Part shown: positions 996 to 13,975 of the stretch, piece by piece | Numbering within the stretch: position 1 is the first letter of the stretch | Layout: each line of letters begins with the position of its first letter | The notes under the pieces: generated by a model | The model's database searches: none | What the model was told of the DNA's origin: nothing | The model's input: the letters and a program-made list of their open reading frames with translations, nothing else | Position numbers and translations under genes: made by a program | NCBI GenBank assembly: GCA_028276785.1 | Contig: JAPYVP010000010.1 | Location: 1 to 15,756, forward strand | DNA: 15,756 nucleotides | DNA from: Candidatus Nanopusillus sp. | GTDB taxonomy: Archaea > Nanobdellota > Nanobdellia > Nanobdellales > Nanobdellaceae | Reading direction: 5' to 3'

Positions 996-1442
996 TTATT
1001 GTGAAAATAAATATTTTTTGAATACTTTTATTATTTGATCATAAATTTCCTCCATATCCTTAATCGAATCTCCTATTAGCTCCATGCTAGCAACTGTCTT
1101 CTCTATTTCTCTGATTCTATCTAACTCTTTTCTTTTGTTATCTTTTTTACTTTTGTTTTCTTTAGTCTCTTCATCTTCATTAGAATTTTCTTTTTTATCA
1201 TCTTCTTCATTGGAATTCTCTTTTTTATTATCATCCTCATTAGAATTTTCTTTTTTATCATCTTCCTGTTTTTTGTATAAGCTAATAATAAGATAACAAT
1301 CTTCTAATAAAATCAATAGTTTATTCTTTAATAGATCTATATCATCATTAGTAGCCCTTAATTTAGCTCTAGCAAATGAGAGTTGAAAATCTAATAGATG
1401 TGCTAAAAAAACATTCTTTAACTGTTGATCTATATATACCAT
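996..1442 (-). CDS. hypothetical acidic/lysine-rich protein with a 10-aa tandem repeat (DDKKENSNE-type)
   Basis: 148-aa ORF. Helical N- and C-terminal parts flank three copies of a (E/D)DDKKENSNE repeat encoded by a 3 x 30-nt tandem repeat. Only 13 nt separate it from the upstream gene's stop, so it is probably in an operon. Confidence 0.7.
   Translation of the reverse strand: MVYIDQQLKNVFLAHLLDFQLSFARAKLRATNDDIDLLKNKLLILLEDCYLIISLYKKQEDDKKENSNEDDNKKENSNEEDDKKENSNEDEETKENKSKKDNKRKELDRIREIEKTVASMELIGDSIKDMEEIYDQIIKVFKKYLFSQ
1178..1267 (-). repeat. 3 x 30-bp in-frame tandem repeat inside the 996..1442 CDS
   Basis: Units at 1178-1207, 1208-1237 and 1238-1267 read cattagaattttcttttttatcatcttctt / cattggaattctcttttttattatcatcct / cattagaattttcttttttatcatcttcct. 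They differ at only a few positions. Confidence 0.9.
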
Positions 1443-1455
1443 TTTAACTTATTAC

Positions 1456-1884
1456 TTATAATATCTTAAAGTTTCTTTTTTGCTTTTCAGAAAATTTAGG
1501 CTCTTCTTCATATAAGTTTGACTTTATAGTATATCCTCCAGTAACTGCACTTAAAATTTCCATAATTCTACTTAAAATATACATTAAAACCCTATAATCA
1601 ACTTTACCCCATCTAATATAATCATCATAAGTCATAAGTTCAAGTAATATTTTTTCTAAAGTTCCTTTTTTAGATAAATCGTCTGTAACTTTAGCTGAAG
1701 ATACATATAAATAAACATTAGTAATTAAAGATCTAACCTTTTTTAGATAATTTTCATCTAGAACCCTATAATTTGCAGAAACATATAAATTACTAGTGTT
1801 TCCTACTTCTTGCAAAAGTCTAATTATCTCTGGTAATAATTGATATCTAAGATCTCCTAATGATAAAAAGGAGGTATCGGCCAT
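1456..1884 (-). CDS. hypothetical protein
   Basis: 142-aa ORF. Its ATG overlaps the upstream gene's stop in a TAATG junction (1882..1886), which implies translational coupling. No family recognised. Confidence 0.7.
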   Translation of the reverse strand: MADTSFLSLGDLRYQLLPEIIRLLQEVGNTSNLYVSANYRVLDENYLKKVRSLITNVYLYVSSAKVTDDLSKKGTLEKILLELMTYDDYIRWGKVDYRVLMYILSRIMEILSAVTGGYTIKSNLYEEEPKFSEKQKRNFKIL

Positions 1885-2387
1885 TACTTCTGAATAGCTG
1901 CAAGAGTTTTAGCCAAATTTATAGCATCTAACAAATACTGCTTTAAACCATTTTCTAGTTCTTCATCTAATTTAGTTGGTTTAAATTCCCACTCTGCTGG
2001 ATATATCTCTTTTTTATGTAAAATTACTCTTACAATGTCTCCATCTATTTGTATTTCTGGAATTTGCTCATACTGTATTATATCAATTTGAGAAACAAAC
2101 TTTATGTCTCTCGCATTCTTATCTATTATATACTTAAAGATATTTAAACCAGTAAGCAATATTCCCTGCATTCTATTAGTTTCTTTATTTTGTATTTCTC
2201 CAACTTTCATTGCTATATTTTTATTGATATCTAAATGCAATAAATAATACCTTGACTCACTTACTTCTTGTCCATTATAATAGTACTTTTTAGTAACCTT
2301 TGGTTTTGCTTTTGGCTCTTTTATATTAAACTCTATTATAATAGCTTCTTCTAATTCCTGAGGTTCCTTAAAAACTTTCATACCCAT
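1884..2387 (-). CDS. hypothetical protein (ORF is open to 2411; start at 2387 preferred)
   Basis: The ORF is 175 aa if it starts at 2411. The ATG at 2387 (MGMKVFKEPQ...) lies 33 nt from a minus-strand TTTATATA box (2420..2413). This mirrors exactly the plus-strand box (2391..2398), which lies 33 nt from the ATG at 2424. No family recognised. Confidence 0.65.
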   Translation of the reverse strand: MGMKVFKEPQELEEAIIIEFNIKEPKAKPKVTKKYYYNGQEVSESRYYLLHLDINKNIAMKVGEIQNKETNRMQGILLTGLNIFKYIIDKNARDIKFVSQIDIIQYEQIPEIQIDGDIVRVILHKKEIYPAEWEFKPTKLDEELENGLKQYLLDAINLAKTLAAIQK

Positions 2388-2390
2388 ATA

Positions 2391-2420
2391 TTTATATATA
2401 GGTGATAACATATATATAAA
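2391..2420. promoter_or_regulatory. interleaved divergent promoter pair: perfect inverted repeat TTTATATATA-N10-TATATATAAA
   Basis: Bases 2391-2400 and 2411-2420 are exact reverse complements. Each arm lies 33 nt upstream of the ATG it faces (2424 on plus, 2387 on minus). Confidence 0.55.
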
Positions 2421-2423
2421 TAT

Positions 2424-2741
2424 ATGGGTCAGGTATTAATAGATATTACCGTACCTGTGGCACCGGCAAGTAGAAAATTTATACATCATATATATGCAGG
2501 AGTAGGCTCTGCAGTACCTGAAATTACAAAATATTTTAAAAGAGATTTTGCTAAAATGACTAAGGAATTAAGTACTAAAATTACAGAAAGAGTTAAACCT
2601 GGTAGTTATATTAAGGGACAAATCATTTTAGAATATGATGATAATACAAAAAAGCCGCTTAAAATGTTTACAAAAGAATTAATAATTTATGATTCAGGTA
2701 ATGTATATAATTACCCAATAATTGTAGAAAATAACAAGTAA
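2424..2741 (+). CDS. hypothetical small protein, paralog of 8104..8415
   Basis: 105 aa. It aligns colinearly with the 103-aa product of 8104..8415. Shared motifs are PV.P..R.FI..(I/V)Y near the N-terminus and DDNTK.P.K(M/L)(F/Y)T near the C-terminus. It is the divergent partner of the 1884..2387 operon. Confidence 0.7.
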   Translation: MGQVLIDITVPVAPASRKFIHHIYAGVGSAVPEITKYFKRDFAKMTKELSTKITERVKPGSYIKGQIILEYDDNTKKPLKMFTKELIIYDSGNVYNYPIIVENNK

Positions 2742-5609: not shown

Positions 5610-5765
5610 TTATCTATGTCTTGATCTACGTTTATAAGTTTTTGGCATTCTATAATTATTATACGATCTAAAACCTCTCGGCACTATAACATATGATAAA
5701 AGTAGAGCAACAAAGGAACCCATCATTAACATGAAAAGTATTGTTAATACTGTAAAGAAGCTCAT
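5610..5765 (-). CDS. single-pass membrane peptide with a basic tail (ORF is open to 5858; start at 5765 preferred)
   Basis: The product is MSFFTVLTILFMLMMGSFVALLLSYVIVPRGFRSYNNYRMPKTYKRRSRHR. A TTTATAAA box (5788-5795) lies 30 nt upstream of the ATG at 5765. The extra 31 N-terminal codons of the long ORF are simply the tandem-repeated promoter DNA. Confidence 0.6.
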   Translation of the reverse strand: MSFFTVLTILFMLMMGSFVALLLSYVIVPRGFRSYNNYRMPKTYKRRSRHR

Positions 5766-5786
5766 CTTATAAATTATAGTCTTAAA

Positions 5787-5847
5787 TTTTATAAAAATGG
5801 TATCACAGCTAAGAAATTTTTTTATAAAAATAGTATTATAGCTAAGA
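5787..5847. repeat. 2 x 28-bp direct repeat at a 33-bp period, each copy carrying a TTTATAAA box
   Basis: TTTTATAAAAATGGTATCACAGCTAAGA (5787-5814) matches TTTTATAAAAATAGTATTATAGCTAAGA (5820-5847) at 25 of 28 positions. The repeat sits in the divergent region between ATG 5765 (minus) and ATG 5877 (plus). Confidence 0.85.
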
Positions 5848-5876
5848 TTTTTATACATCGCAATTAAATATATATT

Positions 5877-6044
5877 ATGGATACAAATATAGAGAATGCA
5901 CTTAATAGGTTAACAAAACATGCAGAAAGCTTAAAAGATATAAAAGACCTTTTAGAATTATATAATGAATTAAAAGATTTAGAATTAAGAGTTAAAATAT
6001 TAAAAGACATGGTCGCAAAGGCTCTGATGAATAATAGAAATTAA
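5877..6044 (+). CDS. small coiled-coil hypothetical protein (55 aa, MDTNIENALNRLTKHAESLKDIKDLLELYNELKDLELRVKILKDMVAKALMNNRN)
   Basis: Translated by hand because it falls below the track cut-off. It has heptad-like composition and is followed by a hairpin plus T7 run. Confidence 0.5.
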   Translation: MDTNIENALNRLTKHAESLKDIKDLLELYNELKDLELRVKILKDMVAKALMNNRN

Positions 6045-6063
6045 AGATTTCTGCCCTTTGGGG

Positions 6064-6107
6064 CCTATGGGCAAAAAATTATGCCATTACCATAGGGAGG
6101 TTTTTTT
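6064..6107 (+). terminator. hairpin (CCTATGG ... CCATAGG) followed by a T7 run
   Basis: A 7-bp stem pairs 6064-6070 with 6090-6096. The sequence then reads GAGG and TTTTTTT (6101-6107). Oligo-T is the usual archaeal termination signal. Confidence 0.4.
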
Positions 6108-6181
6108 AACTGGTTTCTTAACCAAAAAATTCTGCCCCTAGTAGGGGAATATAATCCTGCCATTATAATATCCCTTAAATC

Positions 6182-6210: not shown

Positions 6211-7068
6211 ATGTTTGAAGGTGACTATTATATTGATGTAGGAATTGATAATAATGATTTTAAACTAATCTTAAATGATAACTCAGGAAATATAATTAAA
6301 GTATTTGATAATACTCCAGAAATAGTTAATCAAGCATGGAGAGAATTAGCTCAACTAATTGATAATTATGATCTAATGATTTATGGTAGAGTAAAGATGT
6401 ATAAAGATGGGGATTATATCTTTGATCTATTTAAAAGATATGCATTTATTATATTTATAGAACAGAATGCTTCTTATTTAGCCAGTTTAGATGGTTATAG
6501 AATAAAATACCCAAACTTTACTTATTACATTGCTACACTATATAAACTTTATAAAGCATTTGTTAATCCAAAAACTACTTTAAGTCCTCAAGAATTTATT
6601 TTAATTATTAATCCTTTATTAACTAAAATAAGACCAAACCTTTCCGGACAAGAACTAATTAAATTATTTGACACCTTTGCAATGAATTATTATAAAGCAA
6701 TAGATTATATAAATAAAGAACGTTTAGGTCTTAATAAGGTTATGATTGCAGCTGAAAGACCAATAAATGAAGAACCTAGTACATTAATTACACAACCTAA
6801 TGAAATGGCTATTAGACCAGCTCCATCAATTAATCAACCAAATGCAATAACAGCTTCAGCCCAACCAATGCCTTCTTCACAAAATCCAGGACCACTACCA
6901 ATGAATAATCCACCACAGGTAGTACCTCAAAGACCTCCAGAAATAGTTCAACCAAAAGAAGAAATAACCAAACCAATAGAAGAGAACAAACCAGTTCCAA
7001 CAGAAGAGGCAAATATTAGAAACATTAAAATAGAGCATAGAAGACTTAAATATTCTGAAAATGGATAG
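6211..7068 (+). CDS. hypothetical protein with a Pro/Gln/Asn-rich C-terminal region
   Basis: 285 aa. A globular N-terminal part of about 180 aa is followed by a low-complexity region (PAPSINQPNAITASAQPMPSSQNPGPLPMNNPPQVVPQRPPEIVQPKEE). It overlaps the integrase start by 8 nt (ATGGATAG). Confidence 0.75.
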   Translation: MFEGDYYIDVGIDNNDFKLILNDNSGNIIKVFDNTPEIVNQAWRELAQLIDNYDLMIYGRVKMYKDGDYIFDLFKRYAFIIFIEQNASYLASLDGYRIKYPNFTYYIATLYKLYKAFVNPKTTLSPQEFILIINPLLTKIRPNLSGQELIKLFDTFAMNYYKAIDYINKERLGLNKVMIAAERPINEEPSTLITQPNEMAIRPAPSINQPNAITASAQPMPSSQNPGPLPMNNPPQVVPQRPPEIVQPKEEITKPIEENKPVPTEEANIRNIKIEHRRLKYSENG

Positions 7069-7642
7069 AATACCCAGACATTGGGTAAAATTTATAGGTG
7101 GAAGACCCCCAACTTTTGAAGAACTATATCATATAATTAGATCTAATTTAGAAGAATATTATAATTTAGTAAGATTGCCAAACCCAAAAAGATCTTACAT
7201 TAAAAGGCTTATGTATTATGCTGTAGCTTATTTACAAATAACTAATGGATTGAGAGCTTCTGAAGCCATTTTTGCTATGAAAGAATTCTTAACAAAGGGT
7301 AATAAGAAATTCCAAATATTAGCTGAAAAATCTAATAAAAAAAGATGGGTTATTGTAGCTGAACCTTTAGCATCAATGGCTCCAGTGCTAAAAACTTACT
7401 TAGATACTTTAAAGAATATTAATAGAGGAAATTATAAGGAATTCCTTAGATATAATATGGGAATTAACCCACATACATTAAGATATGTATTTATATCTAA
7501 AGCTGTTAAAAAGGTTGGCGCAGAAGATACTATGGTATATATGGGCTATAAAGACTTTAGACATATGATGGAATATTATAGAACTATAAGATCTGAAGAA
7601 CTATTAGAAGAATTTATAAATAAAATCATAAATATTGAATAA
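7061..7642 (+). CDS. int: short tyrosine recombinase / integrase (catalytic domain only)
   Basis: 193 aa. It has the Arg-I context TNGLRASEA (R65), the H-x-x-R motif HTLRY (H138, R141), and a C-terminal MGYKDFRHMMEYY with candidate nucleophile Tyr172/173. The usual His/Trp position appears to be Tyr163. Motifs were read by eye. Confidence 0.75.
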   Translation: MDRIPRHWVKFIGGRPPTFEELYHIIRSNLEEYYNLVRLPNPKRSYIKRLMYYAVAYLQITNGLRASEAIFAMKEFLTKGNKKFQILAEKSNKKRWVIVAEPLASMAPVLKTYLDTLKNINRGNYKEFLRYNMGINPHTLRYVFISKAVKKVGAEDTMVYMGYKDFRHMMEYYRTIRSEELLEEFINKIINIE

Positions 7643-8466: not shown

Positions 8467-9036
8467 ATGGTAAAATGGCAGATAACAAATATAAATACTG
8501 TAGTCTATTTTAATGTCCCTATTAAATTAGGGCCTTTGGCAGATAAAATATGCAAAGATTATGTTATAAGTTATCATCCTAAAGATTTTCCTGGATTAGT
8601 TATTTACCTTGATAAATTTAGGATAAATATCTTTAGAACAGGATCAATAACTATTACTGGAATAAAAAAAGTTGAGGATTTAACTTCTTCTGTTGATGAA
8701 GTAAGAAATTTATTAAAAAAGTATAATGTTAATTTACCAGAAAAATATAAACTAGAAATAGTAACCAGCTCAATAATTGGAAAATTTGATTATGATAAAA
8801 TAGACATTGAAAGGATGGGTATTGAATTGGAGAATGCTATATATGATCCTGAAAGATTCTCAGCAGCTATTGTTTATTATAATATTTCCCCAAACTACAA
8901 AGTATCTTTTAATATCTTTAAAAATGGTACTTTTGTTGGTGCTGGTTTCAAAAGTGAGCCAAACATACTTATCCAGCATATAGATCAGATAGTAAATTCT
9001 TTTCAAGAGAATATAGTTAAAAAGTATGCTAAATAA
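8467..9036 (+). CDS. tbp: divergent TATA-binding protein (two TBP repeats)
   Basis: 189 aa. Repeat 1 reads ITNINTVVYFNVPIKLGPLADKICKDYVISYHPKDFPGLVIYLDKFRINIFRTGSITITGIKKVED. Repeat 2 reads LEIVTSSIIGKFDYDKIDIERMGIELENAIYDPERFSAAIVYYNISPNYKVSFNIFKNGTFVGAGFKSEPN. Both follow the archaeal TBP pattern I.N.V......L......(Y)eP(E).FPG(L)......(L)IF.SGK...TG.KS.E, but repeat 2 has lost FPG. Confidence 0.85.
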   Translation: MVKWQITNINTVVYFNVPIKLGPLADKICKDYVISYHPKDFPGLVIYLDKFRINIFRTGSITITGIKKVEDLTSSVDEVRNLLKKYNVNLPEKYKLEIVTSSIIGKFDYDKIDIERMGIELENAIYDPERFSAAIVYYNISPNYKVSFNIFKNGTFVGAGFKSEPNILIQHIDQIVNSFQENIVKKYAK

Positions 9037-9611: not shown

Positions 9612-9920
9612 ATGAATAAATTTTATCGAAAGGGCTATTATTATGAAAGAAAGGTCAAGCAATTTCTGATATCAAAAAATTATTTGGTTTGGCGTTCTCC
9701 AGGTTCTAAATCTCCAGTAGATATTATTGCAATAGATGATAAAGGTTATGTAAAATTAATTCAGGTTAAAAGCCATAAAAATATAAAGAAAGAAGAATTA
9801 GAAACCCTTAAAGAATTAGCAAAAAAGTATGAAAATGTGCCTAATGTTGAAGTAGAACTCTGGATCTTTGATAAAAAGCAGAAAATAATATACAATAAAA
9901 AAGCCCTTTTAAATTTATGA
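9612..9920 (+). CDS. hjc: Hjc-like Holliday junction resolvase-fold (PD-(D/E)xK) nuclease
   Basis: 102 aa. RKGYYYERKVKQFLISKNYLVWRSPGSKSPVDIIAIDDKGYVKLIQVKSHK parallels Sulfolobus Hjc RKGSAVERNIVSRLRDKGFAVVRAPASG...PDIIALKNGVIILIEMKSRK (recalled from memory). E12, D37 and K53 are present, but the E of the ExK motif is Gln51. Confidence 0.7.
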   Translation: MNKFYRKGYYYERKVKQFLISKNYLVWRSPGSKSPVDIIAIDDKGYVKLIQVKSHKNIKKEELETLKELAKKYENVPNVEVELWIFDKKQKIIYNKKALLNL

Positions 9921-10780: not shown

Positions 10781-11305
10781 ATGAAATTACAATTAGTAGA
10801 AAGATATCTTAATGAAAATATTCCAAATTTTCTAAAAAAATCTTTAGCTGCACATTATAAAGACGTTCTTACCTTTAGTGAGGCTGTACCTTCACTTTAT
10901 ATTAAATATTTAGCTTATCATGCTATCGCATATTTTCAATACTTAAACAGTTTTGGGGTTAATGATGCAATAAAACTTTATAAAGAATATATAAACTCTA
11001 ACGGTAAAATAACAACTTTTAAGTATAATAGTTTTGAGATACCTTTAAAATTTGATGATCTTTTAAAAAGTGTAAGCCAAACACTAATTCAATATAAAGA
11101 GATAGTACAAAGTATTAAAGAAAGAGAGTATATTTTACATTTTAGGTATGAACATAATCTAATAGCTTCATATATAACTATTTATAATTTAATAAAAGCT
11201 TTTAAAAAGATAGGGCTTGAAGGTATTGTATCATTAAAAAAGCATTGGAGGCTGATTGATATAGTATTTATCCCTTATTTATTAAAGGAAAATGGACAAA
11301 GATAA
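10781..11305 (+). CDS. integrase-like paralog lacking the catalytic arginines (degenerate tyrosine-recombinase fold)
   Basis: 174 aa. AIAYFQYLNSFGVNDAIKLYKEY aligns with the integrase segment AVAYLQITNGLRASEAIFAMKEF, placing Gly at the R65 position. HNLIASY...KAFKKIG aligns with HTLRYVF..KAVKKVG, placing Ile at the R141 position. It shares IAYFQY, EIPLK.D, SL(K/R)KHW and PYLLK with 13460..13975. A T/A box at 10750-10757 lies 31 nt upstream of the ATG. Confidence 0.65.
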   Translation: MKLQLVERYLNENIPNFLKKSLAAHYKDVLTFSEAVPSLYIKYLAYHAIAYFQYLNSFGVNDAIKLYKEYINSNGKITTFKYNSFEIPLKFDDLLKSVSQTLIQYKEIVQSIKEREYILHFRYEHNLIASYITIYNLIKAFKKIGLEGIVSLKKHWRLIDIVFIPYLLKENGQR

Positions 11306-11891
11306 TATGAACAATACTTTAAATATGATAAATCAAATATTGGGATATCAAGATTATACAAACATAGAGAAGGCTATCTTAACATTATTATACCTTTATA
11401 ATGATAAAGTAGATGTTTATAGATTACATAAGATGGTTTTTTTAGCTTCTTTAGATATTCCCGAATTAAGAGAAGAACTTGATCCGAGGCCATCTATGTA
11501 TAAAGGTATATTTTATGATGAAAATATAGCTGAAGCAATTGAATCTTTAAAATTTGATGGCTTAATAGAGGGGGATACTTTTTTACAGTTATCCTCAAAG
11601 GGAAAGGCCCTCCCATTTCTGTTATCTGATAAAGAAAAAGATATTTATAATGAAGTTGTAGATTTATTTAAGGATACAACTGATGATGAAATCCTTGCAA
11701 TATTCTATTATAAACTATATGACCAAATAAAAATATTAAAACCATTAAAAAGGATCGAAAGCAATAGAAAGAAATTAGCTCTAAGTTTATATCAAAAAGG
11801 AAAAATCTCTATTGAAGCTGCTTCAGAGATTGCTGGTATGAATATAAAAGATTTTATGGAAATGCTAAAGAAAAAGAAATTACTTTCCTAA
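11292..11891 (+). CDS. fusion of a YwgA/SocA(Panacea)-like winged-helix region and a C-terminal UPF0175-type HTH antitoxin domain
   Basis: 199 aa. YRLHKMVFLAS...YKGIFYDENIAEAIESLKFDGLIEG resembles the YwgA/DUF4065 pattern RLQK(L/M)V(Y/F)(L/I)A...YGPYSeeL...IeeL...G(L/F)(I/L). The C-terminus RKKLALSLYQKGKISIEAASEIAGMNIKDFMEMLKKKK resembles the UPF0175 consensus (LA..LY..GK(L/I)S.G.AAE.AGM....F.E.L). It overlaps the upstream gene by 14 nt; an alternative ATG is at 11307. Confidence 0.6.
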   Translation: MDKDNMNNTLNMINQILGYQDYTNIEKAILTLLYLYNDKVDVYRLHKMVFLASLDIPELREELDPRPSMYKGIFYDENIAEAIESLKFDGLIEGDTFLQLSSKGKALPFLLSDKEKDIYNEVVDLFKDTTDDEILAIFYYKLYDQIKILKPLKRIESNRKKLALSLYQKGKISIEAASEIAGMNIKDFMEMLKKKKLLS

Positions 11892-11895
11892 AAAA

Positions 11896-12057
11896 TTATT
11901 GAGCTACTTTTGTCTTAACAAATACATACACTGTTCCTTTACAATATGGACATGTGCCTTTTATAGCTTTCTTTCCATTCTTTAAAGTAACTTCTTGTGG
12001 ATTTTCAACGTTTACTTTTTTCTTACATTTAACACAATATGCCATATATTGCTCCAT
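11896..12057 (-). CDS. small zinc-ribbon protein (DUF5679-like)
   Basis: The hand translation is 53 aa: MEQYMAYCVKCKKKVNVENPQEVTLKNGKKAIKGTCPYCKGTVYVFVKTKVAQ. The CxxC...CxxC spacing and the flanking residues match the DUF5679 pattern AYCVKCK.K.....P..VT.KNG.....G.CP.CG(T)K(V/M). It is below the track cut-off. Confidence 0.6.
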   Translation of the reverse strand: MEQYMAYCVKCKKKVNVENPQEVTLKNGKKAIKGTCPYCKGTVYVFVKTKVAQ

Positions 12058-12121
12058 CAATAATATATATTGCCCCTATTTATAAACTTTTTGAATTATG
12101 CCGCATAACTTAAAGGGCAAA

Positions 12122-12129
12122 TTTATAAA
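12122..12129 (+). promoter_or_regulatory. TATA box upstream of tnpB
   Basis: TTTATAAA lies 30 nt upstream of the ATG at 12152. A second box at 12079-12086 lies further upstream. Confidence 0.45.
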
Positions 12130-12151
12130 TCTTGAATATATAAATAAAAAC

Positions 12152-13330
12152 ATGAGTAGGGGGAAGGGTAAGCTAATGATTGCATATAAATTTAGGGCTT
12201 ATCCTACCCCCGAACAAGAGAAAAAGCTTCATGAAATTTTTGCTACTGAAGCTAAAATCTATAATGAAATGATTAAGAAAGCTAATGAGATGAATACGCA
12301 TGACTTAAAAACTGTTGAAAAGACTTTAAGACAAATAATTCATGATTTAGAAAGCTTATGGAAAGGTAAGATATATTCTATGGTTATATATCCTATTGAA
12401 GAGAAATTACTTTATAACTTAAAAGGTTTAGCTCGATTAAAGAAAAAAGGTAAAAAAGTTGGTTCTCTAAAACCAAAAGAAAAGTTTACTTTCTTATTTT
12501 ATAGACATCATGGGTTTAGATTAGATATTGATGGAGTTGAACTATCTAAATTGGGAAAAATAAAAGTACTCTTTCATAGACCCATAGAAGGAAAAATAAA
12601 AGGGGTTGGAATAAAATTAGATAAAGATAATAAATGGTATGTTTATATTGTATCTGAAATAACTCCAAAACCCTTACCTAAAACTGGTAAGGTTGTTGCT
12701 ATTGATTGGGGCATTGAAAAACTTTTAACTACTTCTGATGGTATTGCTATACAAAACCCTTTAATATTAGATAAATTAGAAGAGAGGATTAAAAGATTAC
12801 AAAAAGCTTTATCAAGAAAAAAGAAAGGCTCTAAAAATTATGAAAAAACCAGAGTTAGATTAGCAAAACTTTATAAGTATGCAAAAAACTTAATTAATGA
12901 TTATTTACATAAGGTTACTACATGGTTAGTTAAAAATTATGATGTAATATATGTAGAAAATATAAGGGTTGAAAAATTAATACAAACAAATAAAGCTAAA
13001 AAGTTAAGGAGGCATATTTTACAAGCTAATTACTTTAAGTTTTTGGAGCTTTTAGAGTATAAAGCTAAATTGTATGGTAAACAGGTTATAAAAGTCTCAC
13101 CTAAAAATACATCTAAAAAATGTTCTAGATGTGGCTATGTTAATCAAAAGTTATCTCTAAATGATAGAATATTTAAATGTCCTAAATGTGGTTTAGAAAT
13201 TGATAGAGACTATAATGCTGCTCTAAATATCTTAAATGCGGGGCTGGGGCAGCCCAAAGCGCCTGTGGAGGGGAAACCTCTGCTGTACATCTCCTTCTCT
13301 GAGGGGGTGTACAGCAAGTTTCCCGGATGA
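12152..13330 (+). CDS. tnpB: TnpB (OrfB) RNA-guided endonuclease, IS200/IS605 family
   Basis: It has the typical N-terminus MIAYKFRAYPTPEQEKKL (that ATG is at 12176; the ORF is open from 12098). The RuvC motifs are VVAIDWGIEK (D), VIYVENIRV (E) and EIDRDYNAALNI (D). The zinc finger is CSRCGYV...CPKCGLE. The start at 12152 is chosen on TATA spacing, and 12176 is equally plausible. Confidence 0.9.
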   Translation: MSRGKGKLMIAYKFRAYPTPEQEKKLHEIFATEAKIYNEMIKKANEMNTHDLKTVEKTLRQIIHDLESLWKGKIYSMVIYPIEEKLLYNLKGLARLKKKGKKVGSLKPKEKFTFLFYRHHGFRLDIDGVELSKLGKIKVLFHRPIEGKIKGVGIKLDKDNKWYVYIVSEITPKPLPKTGKVVAIDWGIEKLLTTSDGIAIQNPLILDKLEERIKRLQKALSRKKKGSKNYEKTRVRLAKLYKYAKNLINDYLHKVTTWLVKNYDVIYVENIRVEKLIQTNKAKKLRRHILQANYFKFLELLEYKAKLYGKQVIKVSPKNTSKKCSRCGYVNQKLSLNDRIFKCPKCGLEIDRDYNAALNILNAGLGQPKAPVEGKPLLYISFSEGVYSKFPG

Positions 13331-13425
13331 AGCAGGAAACATGTGGTAAGCCTGGAAAGGGCTTACCTAAATAGGAGAAAAGCAGTAAAGCAGAAAAGCA
13401 GAGAGAAAGGCCCACTTCTGTGAGC
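13235..13425 (+). ncRNA. putative TnpB omega RNA (reRNA) scaffold overlapping the tnpB 3' end
   Basis: This is a G+C-rich island with consecutive plus-strand stems. GGGCTG/CAGCCC pairs 13241-46 with 13250-55. GAGG/CCTC pairs 13268-71 with 13277-80. CTGTACA/TGTACAG pairs 13283-89 with 13308-14. GGTAAGCC/GGCTTACC pairs 13345-52 with 13360-67. Known TnpB omega RNAs overlap the 3' end of tnpB and the right end of the element. The exact ends are unknown. Confidence 0.6.
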
Positions 13426-13430
13426 TTTCT

Positions 13431-13438
13431 TTTATAAA
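13431..13438 (+). promoter_or_regulatory. TATA box for 13460..13975
   Basis: TTTATAAA lies 29 nt upstream of the ATG at 13460. It is part of the recurring 13-14-mer TTTATAAACTTTT(T), also found at 12079 and 14773. Confidence 0.5.
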
Positions 13439-13459
13439 CTTTTTCTAAATATTTATTTT

Positions 13460-13975
13460 ATGAAATTAAAGCTAGATCCTAAAATTTTAAACATGCCTCT
13501 TGAAGATAAAATAAAAGATGCTTTAAAAGATGCTAAAAATATAGAAGATAAGATTTATCTTTCCATAGCATATTTTCAATATATAAATAAGCTCAGTACT
13601 AACAAAGCTATTAGATTATTTAAGGAACTCTTATTATCCGATGGGCAGAAATTAGGTTATCCCTTTTCGATTTATTATGCACAAGATAATAAACTTTTAA
13701 TAAGAAAAATAGAGATACCATTAAAAATTGACGAATTTTTGGCAAATTATATTAATGAAATTAAAAACTATAAGAGTTTAATAAGTAAAGTAACTAAAAG
13801 CACATATAATAAATATTTAAGAAAGTATTTAAATATAAAATCTTCAGATATTTTAGCTTATATAATATATAAAATGATTGAAGAGATAGGTATACACACT
13901 TTAATATCTTTAAGAAAACATTGGGCTTTATTCAGTAGGAATCTACTACCTTATTTATTAAAAAATAAGACTTAA
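13460..13975 (+). CDS. integrase-like paralog lacking the catalytic arginines (second copy)
   Basis: 171 aa. SIAYFQYINKLSTNKAIRLFKEL aligns with the integrase segment AVAYLQITNGLRASEAIFAMKEF, placing Ser at the R65 position. It has no H-x-x-R equivalent (SSDILAY). It shares EIPLKID, SLRKHW and PYLLK with 10781..11305. Confidence 0.65.
   Translation: MKLKLDPKILNMPLEDKIKDALKDAKNIEDKIYLSIAYFQYINKLSTNKAIRLFKELLLSDGQKLGYPFSIYYAQDNKLLIRKIEIPLKIDEFLANYINEIKNYKSLISKVTKSTYNKYLRKYLNIKSSDILAYIIYKMIEEIGIHTLISLRKHWALFSRNLLPYLLKNKT

Follow-up and report, generated by a model that had tools for sequence, protein, structure and literature searches.

The locus

The window analyzed here is a stretch of 15,756 nucleotides (15.7 kb) from Candidatus Nanopusillus sp. 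(contig JAPYVP010000010.1). It is A+T-rich (25-31% G+C) and encodes many small proteins without database matches. Matched homologs carry the source names 'Nanoarchaeotal virus 1' (NV1; NV1_08, NV1_14, and 'viral integrase') and 'Candidatus Nanopusillus sp.', and gene order is collinear with that of NV1 (MN056826) across the entire shared stretch. This collinearity, together with the source names, marks the window as a piece of the genome of an NV1-like virus from hot-spring Nanoarchaeota. The genome of an NV1-type virus is about 35 kb, and to our knowledge NV1 is the sole described virus of the Nanoarchaeota. A phage and archaeal-virus GenBank collection (apparently lacking NV1) gave no DNA match to the window, and an IMG/VR scan returned zero relatives.

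Three genes are at issue: one encodes a short tyrosine recombinase (Int), and two encode proteins designated A and B, whose NV1 orthologs are named 'hypothetical protein' in the source records.

7061..7642, + strand: Int, short tyrosine recombinase, 193 amino acids; 82% identical to the NV1 'viral integrase'
10781..11305, + strand: paralog A, 174 amino acids; ortholog of NV1_08; lacks Arg-I, Lys-beta, His-II, and Arg-II; keeps H155-W156 and Y166
13460..13975, + strand: paralog B, 171 amino acids; ortholog of NV1_14; lacks Arg-I, His-II, and Arg-II; keeps H154-W155 and Y165

Two relatives of the viral integrase

A and B align with each other end to end (BLASTP: 30% identity, E = 2e-23). The alignment includes all of the segments on which the initial annotation had based their paralogy: IAYFQY(L/I)N, EIPLK(F/I)D, SL(K/R)KHW, and (I/L)PYLLK. 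Both proteins also align with Int, as had been proposed (BLASTP: E = 7e-8 for A and 4e-7 for B).

Profile comparisons agree. In hhalign, the A/B family profile (71 members) and the Int profile (16 homologs) match with a probability of 98.3% (E = 2.6e-14) over 142 columns, pairing A residues 12-153 with Int residues 20-161. In hidden Markov model (HMM) searches, the two profiles reciprocally match each other's proteins. Against shuffled sequences (2000 each), the family profile scored Int at 55.7 bits, compared with a shuffle maximum of 13.0; the Int profile scored A at 32.3 and B at 28.9 bits, compared with maxima of 9.9 and 8.7. The similarity has no compositional cause, because real scores of 29-56 bits stand against a shuffle maximum of 13.

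The strongest single result comes from running the family profile exhaustively, as an HMM search, against 1.84 billion representative proteins. Just 15 of them matched. Outside the family, the only full-length matches were the NV1-type integrase (E = 1.7e-11) and a 211-residue integrase-like relative (E = 2.1e-7), and no family member was found outside nanoarchaeal virus-like contigs. A also gave no tblastn match in the GenBank virus collection mentioned above.

General resources offered little more. PF00589 matched 0 of the 71 family members at E <= 1, and the Pfam, NCBIfam, and informative PHROG models include none for the family; six members match the integrase family phrog_9208 weakly. PDB sequence searches with Int, the Int profile, and the family profile returned nothing relevant. 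No published description of the family was found in a literature search that did not reach the NV1 paper itself.

Int, by comparison with its 16 homologs, has invariant R65, E68, K90/K93, H138, R141, and Y172; Y163, at the His-III position, is likewise invariant. Int matches phrog_9208 (E = 3e-15) and, by tblastn, bicaudavirus integrases. Its PF00589 score of 17.4 bits lies under the 27.1 threshold, above which its relatives P0149 (30.7 bits) and STSV2_54 (37.3 bits) are found. The AlphaFold model of Int (pLDDT 83.7) matches the solved structures 3nkh (probability 1.0, TM 0.50) and lambda Int (probability 0.91). Int is probably an active tyrosine recombinase, consistent with the earlier picture of one active copy accompanied by two inactive ones: its family keeps the R, K, H-x-x-R, and Y residues invariant, and its model resembles known integrases.

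Loss of the catalytic residues

Residues were mapped through the profile alignment and through an alignment anchored on the STSV2 integrase; column counts cover the 71 family members.

Arg-I (Int R65): A, G59; B, S46; family, Ser 32, Gly 19, Asn 7, Arg 7, Lys 5, Ala 1
Lys-beta (Int K90/K93): A, none; B, none; family without a conserved lysine
His-II (Int H138): A, S130; B, S129; family, Ser 61, Thr 9, Gln 1
Arg-II (Int R141): A, T133; B, L132; family, Thr 58, Leu 8, others (Ile, Pro, or Val) 5
His-III (Int Y163; G-H in STSV2): A, H155; B, H154; family, His 67, Tyr 4
Tyr (Int Y172): A, Y166; B, Y165; family, Tyr 42, Phe 19, His 6, Asn 2, Leu 1, Ile 1

MAFFT instead placed the family 'HW' on the Int 'YY' with a 9-residue gap. 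That placement was rejected; the STSV2-anchored alignment is preferred because it agrees with the model helix boundaries and with canonical spacing.

The replacement of R65 by Gly or Ser, read earlier from the sequence, falls at G59 in A and S46 in B. The supposed change of the H-x-x-R arginine to Ile does not survive: the 'EHNLI' pairing behind it is off by five residues, and the true pairs are S130/T133 in A and S129/L132 in B. Proper alignment does not restore R-H-R. Neither His-II nor Arg-II is kept in any of the 71 members, and Arg-I is never combined with another catalytic residue in any of them. The K90 column holds Thr, Tyr, Ala, Lys, or Ile and the K93 column Ile, Phe, Val, or Leu; the hairpin turn of A is N83-S84.

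What persists is the C-terminal KHW...PY region, also picked out at the outset. The STSV2-anchored alignment pairs KHW with the canonical G-H (His-III) and brings P-Y to the column of the catalytic Tyr. His-III is conserved in 94% of members (67/71), W156 in 89%, and Tyr in 59%. Because Tyr occupies its column in just 42 of the 71, this position appears not to be selected as a nucleophile. A and B are predicted to be incapable of the phosphoryl-transfer chemistry of tyrosine recombinases, because they lack Arg-I, Lys-beta, His-II, and Arg-II and their Tyr is unconserved across the family.

The AlphaFold model of A (pLDDT 91.4) is a single domain with secondary structures in the same order as in the Int model. 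In a Foldseek comparison with BFVD, this model retrieved those of NV1_08 (TM 0.89) and of the B ortholog NV1_14 (TM 0.79). It also matched two integrases with probability 1.0, that of NV1 (TM 0.64, E = 1.3e-5) and V10 of the Sputnik virophage (TM 0.54). One further protein followed with probability 0.99, and then VLF-1 proteins (0.57-0.66). The predicted link in fold rests on these BFVD matches and on profile homology, which place the integrase catalytic fold in the A model. The initial reading thus passes both of the checks that it had named as able to refute it, the one on fold and the one on restored R-H-R residues.

A family under selection

Homologs at E <= 0.01 number 135 and form three monophyletic subfamilies: A-type; B-type; and a 191-residue C-type, sister to the A-type. 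The C-type genes occur in other nanoarchaeal virus-like elements, in single copy per contig. Columns invariant across the family are A50-Y-F-Q-Y54, N56, D92, L95, and Y117.

Ratios of nonsynonymous to synonymous substitution (dN/dS) among the window, NV1, and the lineage of a related locus, L001, are 0.24-0.35 for A, 0.20-0.30 for B, and 0.13-0.15 for Int; these NG86 estimates are rough, since dS is near 1. A and B are under purifying selection, looser than that on Int, and their nonsynonymous rate is about 2.5 times the Int rate.

Upstream regions differ among the subfamilies. Those of A and B are short (about 50 nucleotides) and contain a TATA box. C-type genes in unrelated contigs are preceded by about 340-580 nucleotides of noncoding DNA (locus L008, 8123-8702; L010, 1468-2039; L012, 5215-5551).

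Gene neighborhood

Context was surveyed in 80 metagenomic loci and in loci fetched by protein identity. The genes near A and B in the window are as follows.

8467-9036: TBP, virus-encoded (Pfam TBP, E = 1.7e-23)
9612-9920: Hjc-type Holliday-junction resolvase (E = 3.9e-8)
11292..11891, + strand: UPF0175-domain gene, 199 amino acids, with a C-terminal helix-turn-helix (HTH); between A and B in all NV1-like contigs examined
11896..12060, - strand: DUF5679 zinc-ribbon protein, 54 amino acids; in most NV1-like contigs, including TnpB-deleted ones, and missing in the L001 lineage
12098..13330, + strand: TnpB (IS605 OrfB / Cas12f-like); dispensable, inserted after the UPF0175-domain gene and ahead of B
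13331..13421, + strand: noncoding tail of the TnpB block, relatively G+C-rich; candidate guide-RNA or right-end region
about 13430: B promoter (TTTTATAA), following the TnpB noncoding tail

Every sufficiently long NV1-like contig presents the order Int, (TBP, Hjc), A, UPF0175-domain gene, B. The TBP and Hjc genes are both missing from the L001 lineage, whose genomes are otherwise collinear. The start of the UPF0175-domain gene overlaps the 3' end of A, by 14 nucleotides in the window and by 4 in L001. Since the UPF0175-domain gene separates A from B in all NV1-like contigs examined, A, this gene, and B probably form one operon. Its 199-residue product matches the UPF0175 family in the C-terminal 40 or so residues only; the N-terminal portion, about 150 residues, has no match.

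The initial annotation described A and B as bracketing the TnpB element. They do flank TnpB here, but a link to it is contradicted by relatives that keep A, the UPF0175-domain gene, and B without TnpB. In about 12 contigs, TnpB comes between B and the UPF0175-domain gene. The lineage comprising L001, L002, and L003 has neither TnpB nor DUF5679, and 108 nucleotides separate the UPF0175-domain gene from B. Loci L027 and L029, which share one sequence at this point, keep DUF5679 together with just the first 28 or so TnpB codons (MSKGKGKLMIAYKFRAYPTPEQEK; compare 12150-12230 of the window), joined directly to the region upstream of B (L029, 2858-2960); TnpB and its RNA region have been cleanly deleted from within. 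L015 has a split TnpB, in two open reading frames (ORFs). The order of A, UPF0175-domain gene, and B is kept with or without TnpB. Therefore, the flanking of TnpB by A and B is incidental, and their conserved partner is the UPF0175-HTH gene that lies between them.

The TnpB block has features of its own. Its 3' end and about 90 nucleotides downstream (13200-13421; NV1 locus L005, 5780-6000) are about 95% identical in DNA between the window and NV1, whereas Int, A, B, and the UPF0175-domain protein, at 58-84% protein identity, are far more diverged. This relatively G+C-rich stretch is likely the guide-RNA (omega RNA) or right-end region; Rfam gave no match to the TnpB downstream region. A GCCCAC motif is found at the right edge of the TnpB block (about 13405-13412), at the L029 deletion joint (about 2945), and in the TnpB-less intergenic region of L001 (about 11125). 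NV1 has about five spaced GCCCAC copies in an extra 140 or so nucleotides ahead of the B promoter (L005, about 5990-6130). The motif could mark a target or an end of the element, or it could be a repeat to which a protein binds.

A search near Int, A, and B for repeats or palindromes that might act as binding or att sites gave no signal beyond the A+T-rich background. No tRNA genes, which are possible att sites, were found in the window, in five related loci, or in the parts read of contig Ga0080008_143969. A 193-residue ORF beside the C-type gene in locus L006 was considered as an integrase and rejected, having no integrase homology.

What might the proteins do?

The best overall explanation, to which we assign a probability of roughly 0.55, is that A and B arose long ago as duplicates of the viral integrase, are catalytically dead, and are kept as core genes of NV1-like viruses. 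Duplication of the viral integrase, followed by catalytic death, would have given rise to both. We are confident of one part of this, that A and B are dead integrase derivatives with functional, noncatalytic roles. They would retain the DNA-binding surface of the recombinase fold and act without catalysis, through DNA, protein, or both. Together with the HTH protein whose gene lies between theirs, they could assist or regulate the integrase during integration and excision, as accessory subunits or regulators that influence the choice of site, the assembly of the complex, or directionality. A/B carriers long enough to judge often also encode an integrase of the Int type. We put forward this accessory role in particular as a tentative proposal, somewhat short of an even chance.

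Several observations weigh against the explanation. Bicaudavirus genomes contain related integrases and lack any A/B homolog, so this type of integrase does not need A or B. The A and B genes lie 3-6 kb from the Int gene and are not adjacent to it. In six contigs, a C-type gene is 0.2-8 kb from an Int-like ORF, at variable distance and orientation, and several C-type contigs of 10-12 kb have no Int, although these are incomplete. The isoelectric points of A and B are basic (9.4 and 9.7, compared with 5.2 for the UPF0175-domain protein between them), which fits a retained DNA-binding surface but is weak evidence in a Lys-rich proteome. Foldseek comparison of the A model with PDB yielded noise only (best E = 0.5). 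Finally, A and B stop soon after the Tyr column and lack the C-terminal helix of Int (residues 179-190). In tyrosine recombinases, the C-terminal helix mediates protomer-protomer contacts within tetramers.

That missing helix also favors a rival, in which A and B bind DNA as regulators independently of the integrase, for example as transcription factors of the virus or as proteins of genome architecture, and reuse the fold as a scaffold. This reading, although tentative too, is nearly as likely as the accessory role. The A gene is in an apparent operon with the HTH (UPF0175) protein and not with the integrase; the virus has a TBP of its own, and so invests in the control of transcription; DUF3504 domains that were domesticated and lack R-H-R-Y have been proposed to be regulatory (PMC13465315); and A and B diverge faster at nonsynonymous sites than the integrase does. 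However, no binding motif or operator-like repeat was found near the A, B, and Int genes, and all elements in which the family has been seen belong to lineages with this type of integrase. The faster divergence would also be expected of proteins in conflict, as in a scheme where A and B are dominant-negative 'anti-integrases' that block integrase sites or protomers, whether to hold the virus in its integrated or free state or to keep out superinfecting relatives. Such a scheme would suit an oligomeric enzyme whose dead paralogs are kept beside the active copy under purifying selection, but it is purely inferential and requires the same DNA and protein contacts as the accessory model; we consider it unlikely. 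About as doubtful is a reading in which A and B are obligatory noncatalytic protomers of a mixed complex with the integrase, filling half of the synapse sites. Only one pair of strands would be exchanged, and the viral Hjc would then resolve the Holliday junction. We know of no description, for viral integration, of such a division of labor between a half-active tyrosine recombinase and a dedicated resolvase.

Three further possibilities deserve little credence. A and B could be still-active recombinases or nucleases with a noncanonical site, for example around His155, given the conservation of H155 and W156 and the presence of Tyr at the catalytic column in both window copies; yet His-II and Arg-II are replaced in 71 of 71 members, Lys-beta is not conserved, the Tyr column holds Phe, His, Asn, Leu, or Ile in 41%, and no alternative invariant polar cluster is evident beyond Q53, N56, and D92. 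This we judge very improbable. A functional tie to TnpB, as element-end proteins or TnpB partners, is more improbable still. Although A and B flank DUF5679 and TnpB in NV1 and some 10 further contigs as well as in the window, the three-locus lineage has A, the UPF0175-domain gene, and B with no TnpB; TnpB is reduced to about 28 codons in L027 and L029 and is split in L015; C-type genes have no TnpB neighbor; and no family member is found beyond nanoarchaeal virus-like contigs among the 1.84 billion proteins. TnpB plays no part in the role of A and B. Equally remote is the notion that A and B are decaying, functionless duplicates, or that their likeness to the integrase merely reflects the composition of an A+T-rich genome. 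The low G+C content (26%), the abundance of Lys, Ile, Asn, and Tyr, and the lack of Pfam and NCBIfam matches for A or B would fit, but more than 100 intact homologs share invariant columns, dN/dS is 0.2-0.35, the bit scores stand far above those of shuffled sequences, the integrase was recovered from the whole library at E = 1.7e-11, and the structure model is confident.

Comparison with known systems

The closest known relatives are the NV1 integrase and the short integrases of Bicaudaviridae (STSV2_54, ATV, SMV; PF00589). These share with A and B about 140 homologous residues, the same order of helices and beta-hairpin, an A-Y-x-Q-x-x-N helix before Arg-I, His-III, and, in many members, the Tyr column. 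Unlike them, A and B lack Arg-I, Lys-beta, His-II, Arg-II, the post-Tyr helix, and any Pfam match; B also lacks Glu-I.

Recombination directionality factors (Xis/Cox), small basic DNA-binding proteins that steer an integrase, offer a possible functional analogy, although no relation to A and B in sequence or fold is seen. Known directionality factors are small winged-helix proteins and do not have the recombinase fold. VLF-1, another viral protein of the tyrosine-recombinase family, is a weak structural match to A (Foldseek probability 0.57-0.66), but is about twice as long as A and B and comes from eukaryotic viruses. Its role lies in genome processing and very late transcription, not in integration of the classical kind. 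VLF-1 of baculoviruses and nudiviruses keeps the conserved Tyr and catalytic motifs (PMC3649998).

Inactivated recombinases are known elsewhere. TnsF, from Tn6022-like Tn7 transposons, derives by inactivation from an active Tsy recombinase and serves as a target selector (Faure et al. 2023, PMC10293859). Like A and B, it is a mobile-element tyrosine-recombinase domain inactivated from an active ancestor, in this case co-opted for noncatalytic DNA recognition. However, TnsF is a bacterial protein of about 500 amino acids with N-terminal zinc fingers and tandem core-binding-like domains (CB1/CB2), works with TnsABC, and targets comM. A and B have no detectable sequence relation to it; they are stand-alone, the size of a catalytic domain, and accompanied by an active paralog in the same genome. 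Animal DUF3504 domains (ZMYM/QRICH1-type, Crypton-derived) likewise have the tyrosine-recombinase fold, have lost the R-H-R-Y tetrad, and are kept under selection (PMC13465315). They differ in being domesticated by eukaryotes, multi-domain, not virus-encoded, and without an active paralog in the same element, and neither PF12012 (DUF3504) nor any other Pfam domain matched the A/B family. In kind, A and B can be classed as inactivated tyrosine-recombinase derivatives (predicted fold kept, catalytic residues lost, selected), and not as members of the TnsF or DUF3504 families. Sequence comparison sets them apart as a new family of tyrosine-recombinase derivatives that is catalytically dead, narrowly distributed, and confined to nanoarchaeal viruses.

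Other features of the window and of related loci

A second pair of paralogs is encoded in the window. These proteins share 31% identity (E = 1e-18) and a DDNTK-P-K motif, and neither has a family match.

2424-2741, + strand: 105 amino acids
8104-8415, - strand: 103 amino acids

Gene duplication seems to be common in this virus. A near-perfect palindrome at 2382-2429 (22-nucleotide arms, 95% complementary, 4-nucleotide spacer) covers the divergent starts of the genes at 1884-2411 (- strand) and 2424-2741 (+ strand). Tandem 30-nucleotide repeats at 1128-1265, within the ORF at 996-1442 (- strand), encode an acidic repeat of the KKENSNE(E)DD type. A 33-nucleotide tandem duplication (85% identity) occupies 5787-5852, in the 5' part of the ORF at 5610-5858 (- strand).

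The 113-kb contig Ga0080008_143969, attributed to Candidatus Nanopusillus, contains two virus-like regions. The first, L001 (74-95 kb), is NV1-like and carries Int, A, the UPF0175-domain gene, and B. The second, L006 (101-113 kb), lies about 10 kb away and carries a C-type gene, Hjc, a D12 methyltransferase, and a 1504-residue DUF2341 protein. The two could be separate integrated elements or parts of a single larger one.

Implications

Dead derivatives of tyrosine recombinases are an established kind of protein, and A and B would add an archaeal-virus example to a short list that includes TnsF and DUF3504. The scope is narrow, one small lineage of hot-spring viruses, and the roles proposed for A and B are inferred. 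What is unusual is the presence of one or two dead copies beside the gene of their active parent in one small genome. Two core genes of NV1, along with a third subfamily in related elements, now have a probable origin. This provides a testable handle on how integration or gene expression may be controlled in viruses that remain uncultivated.

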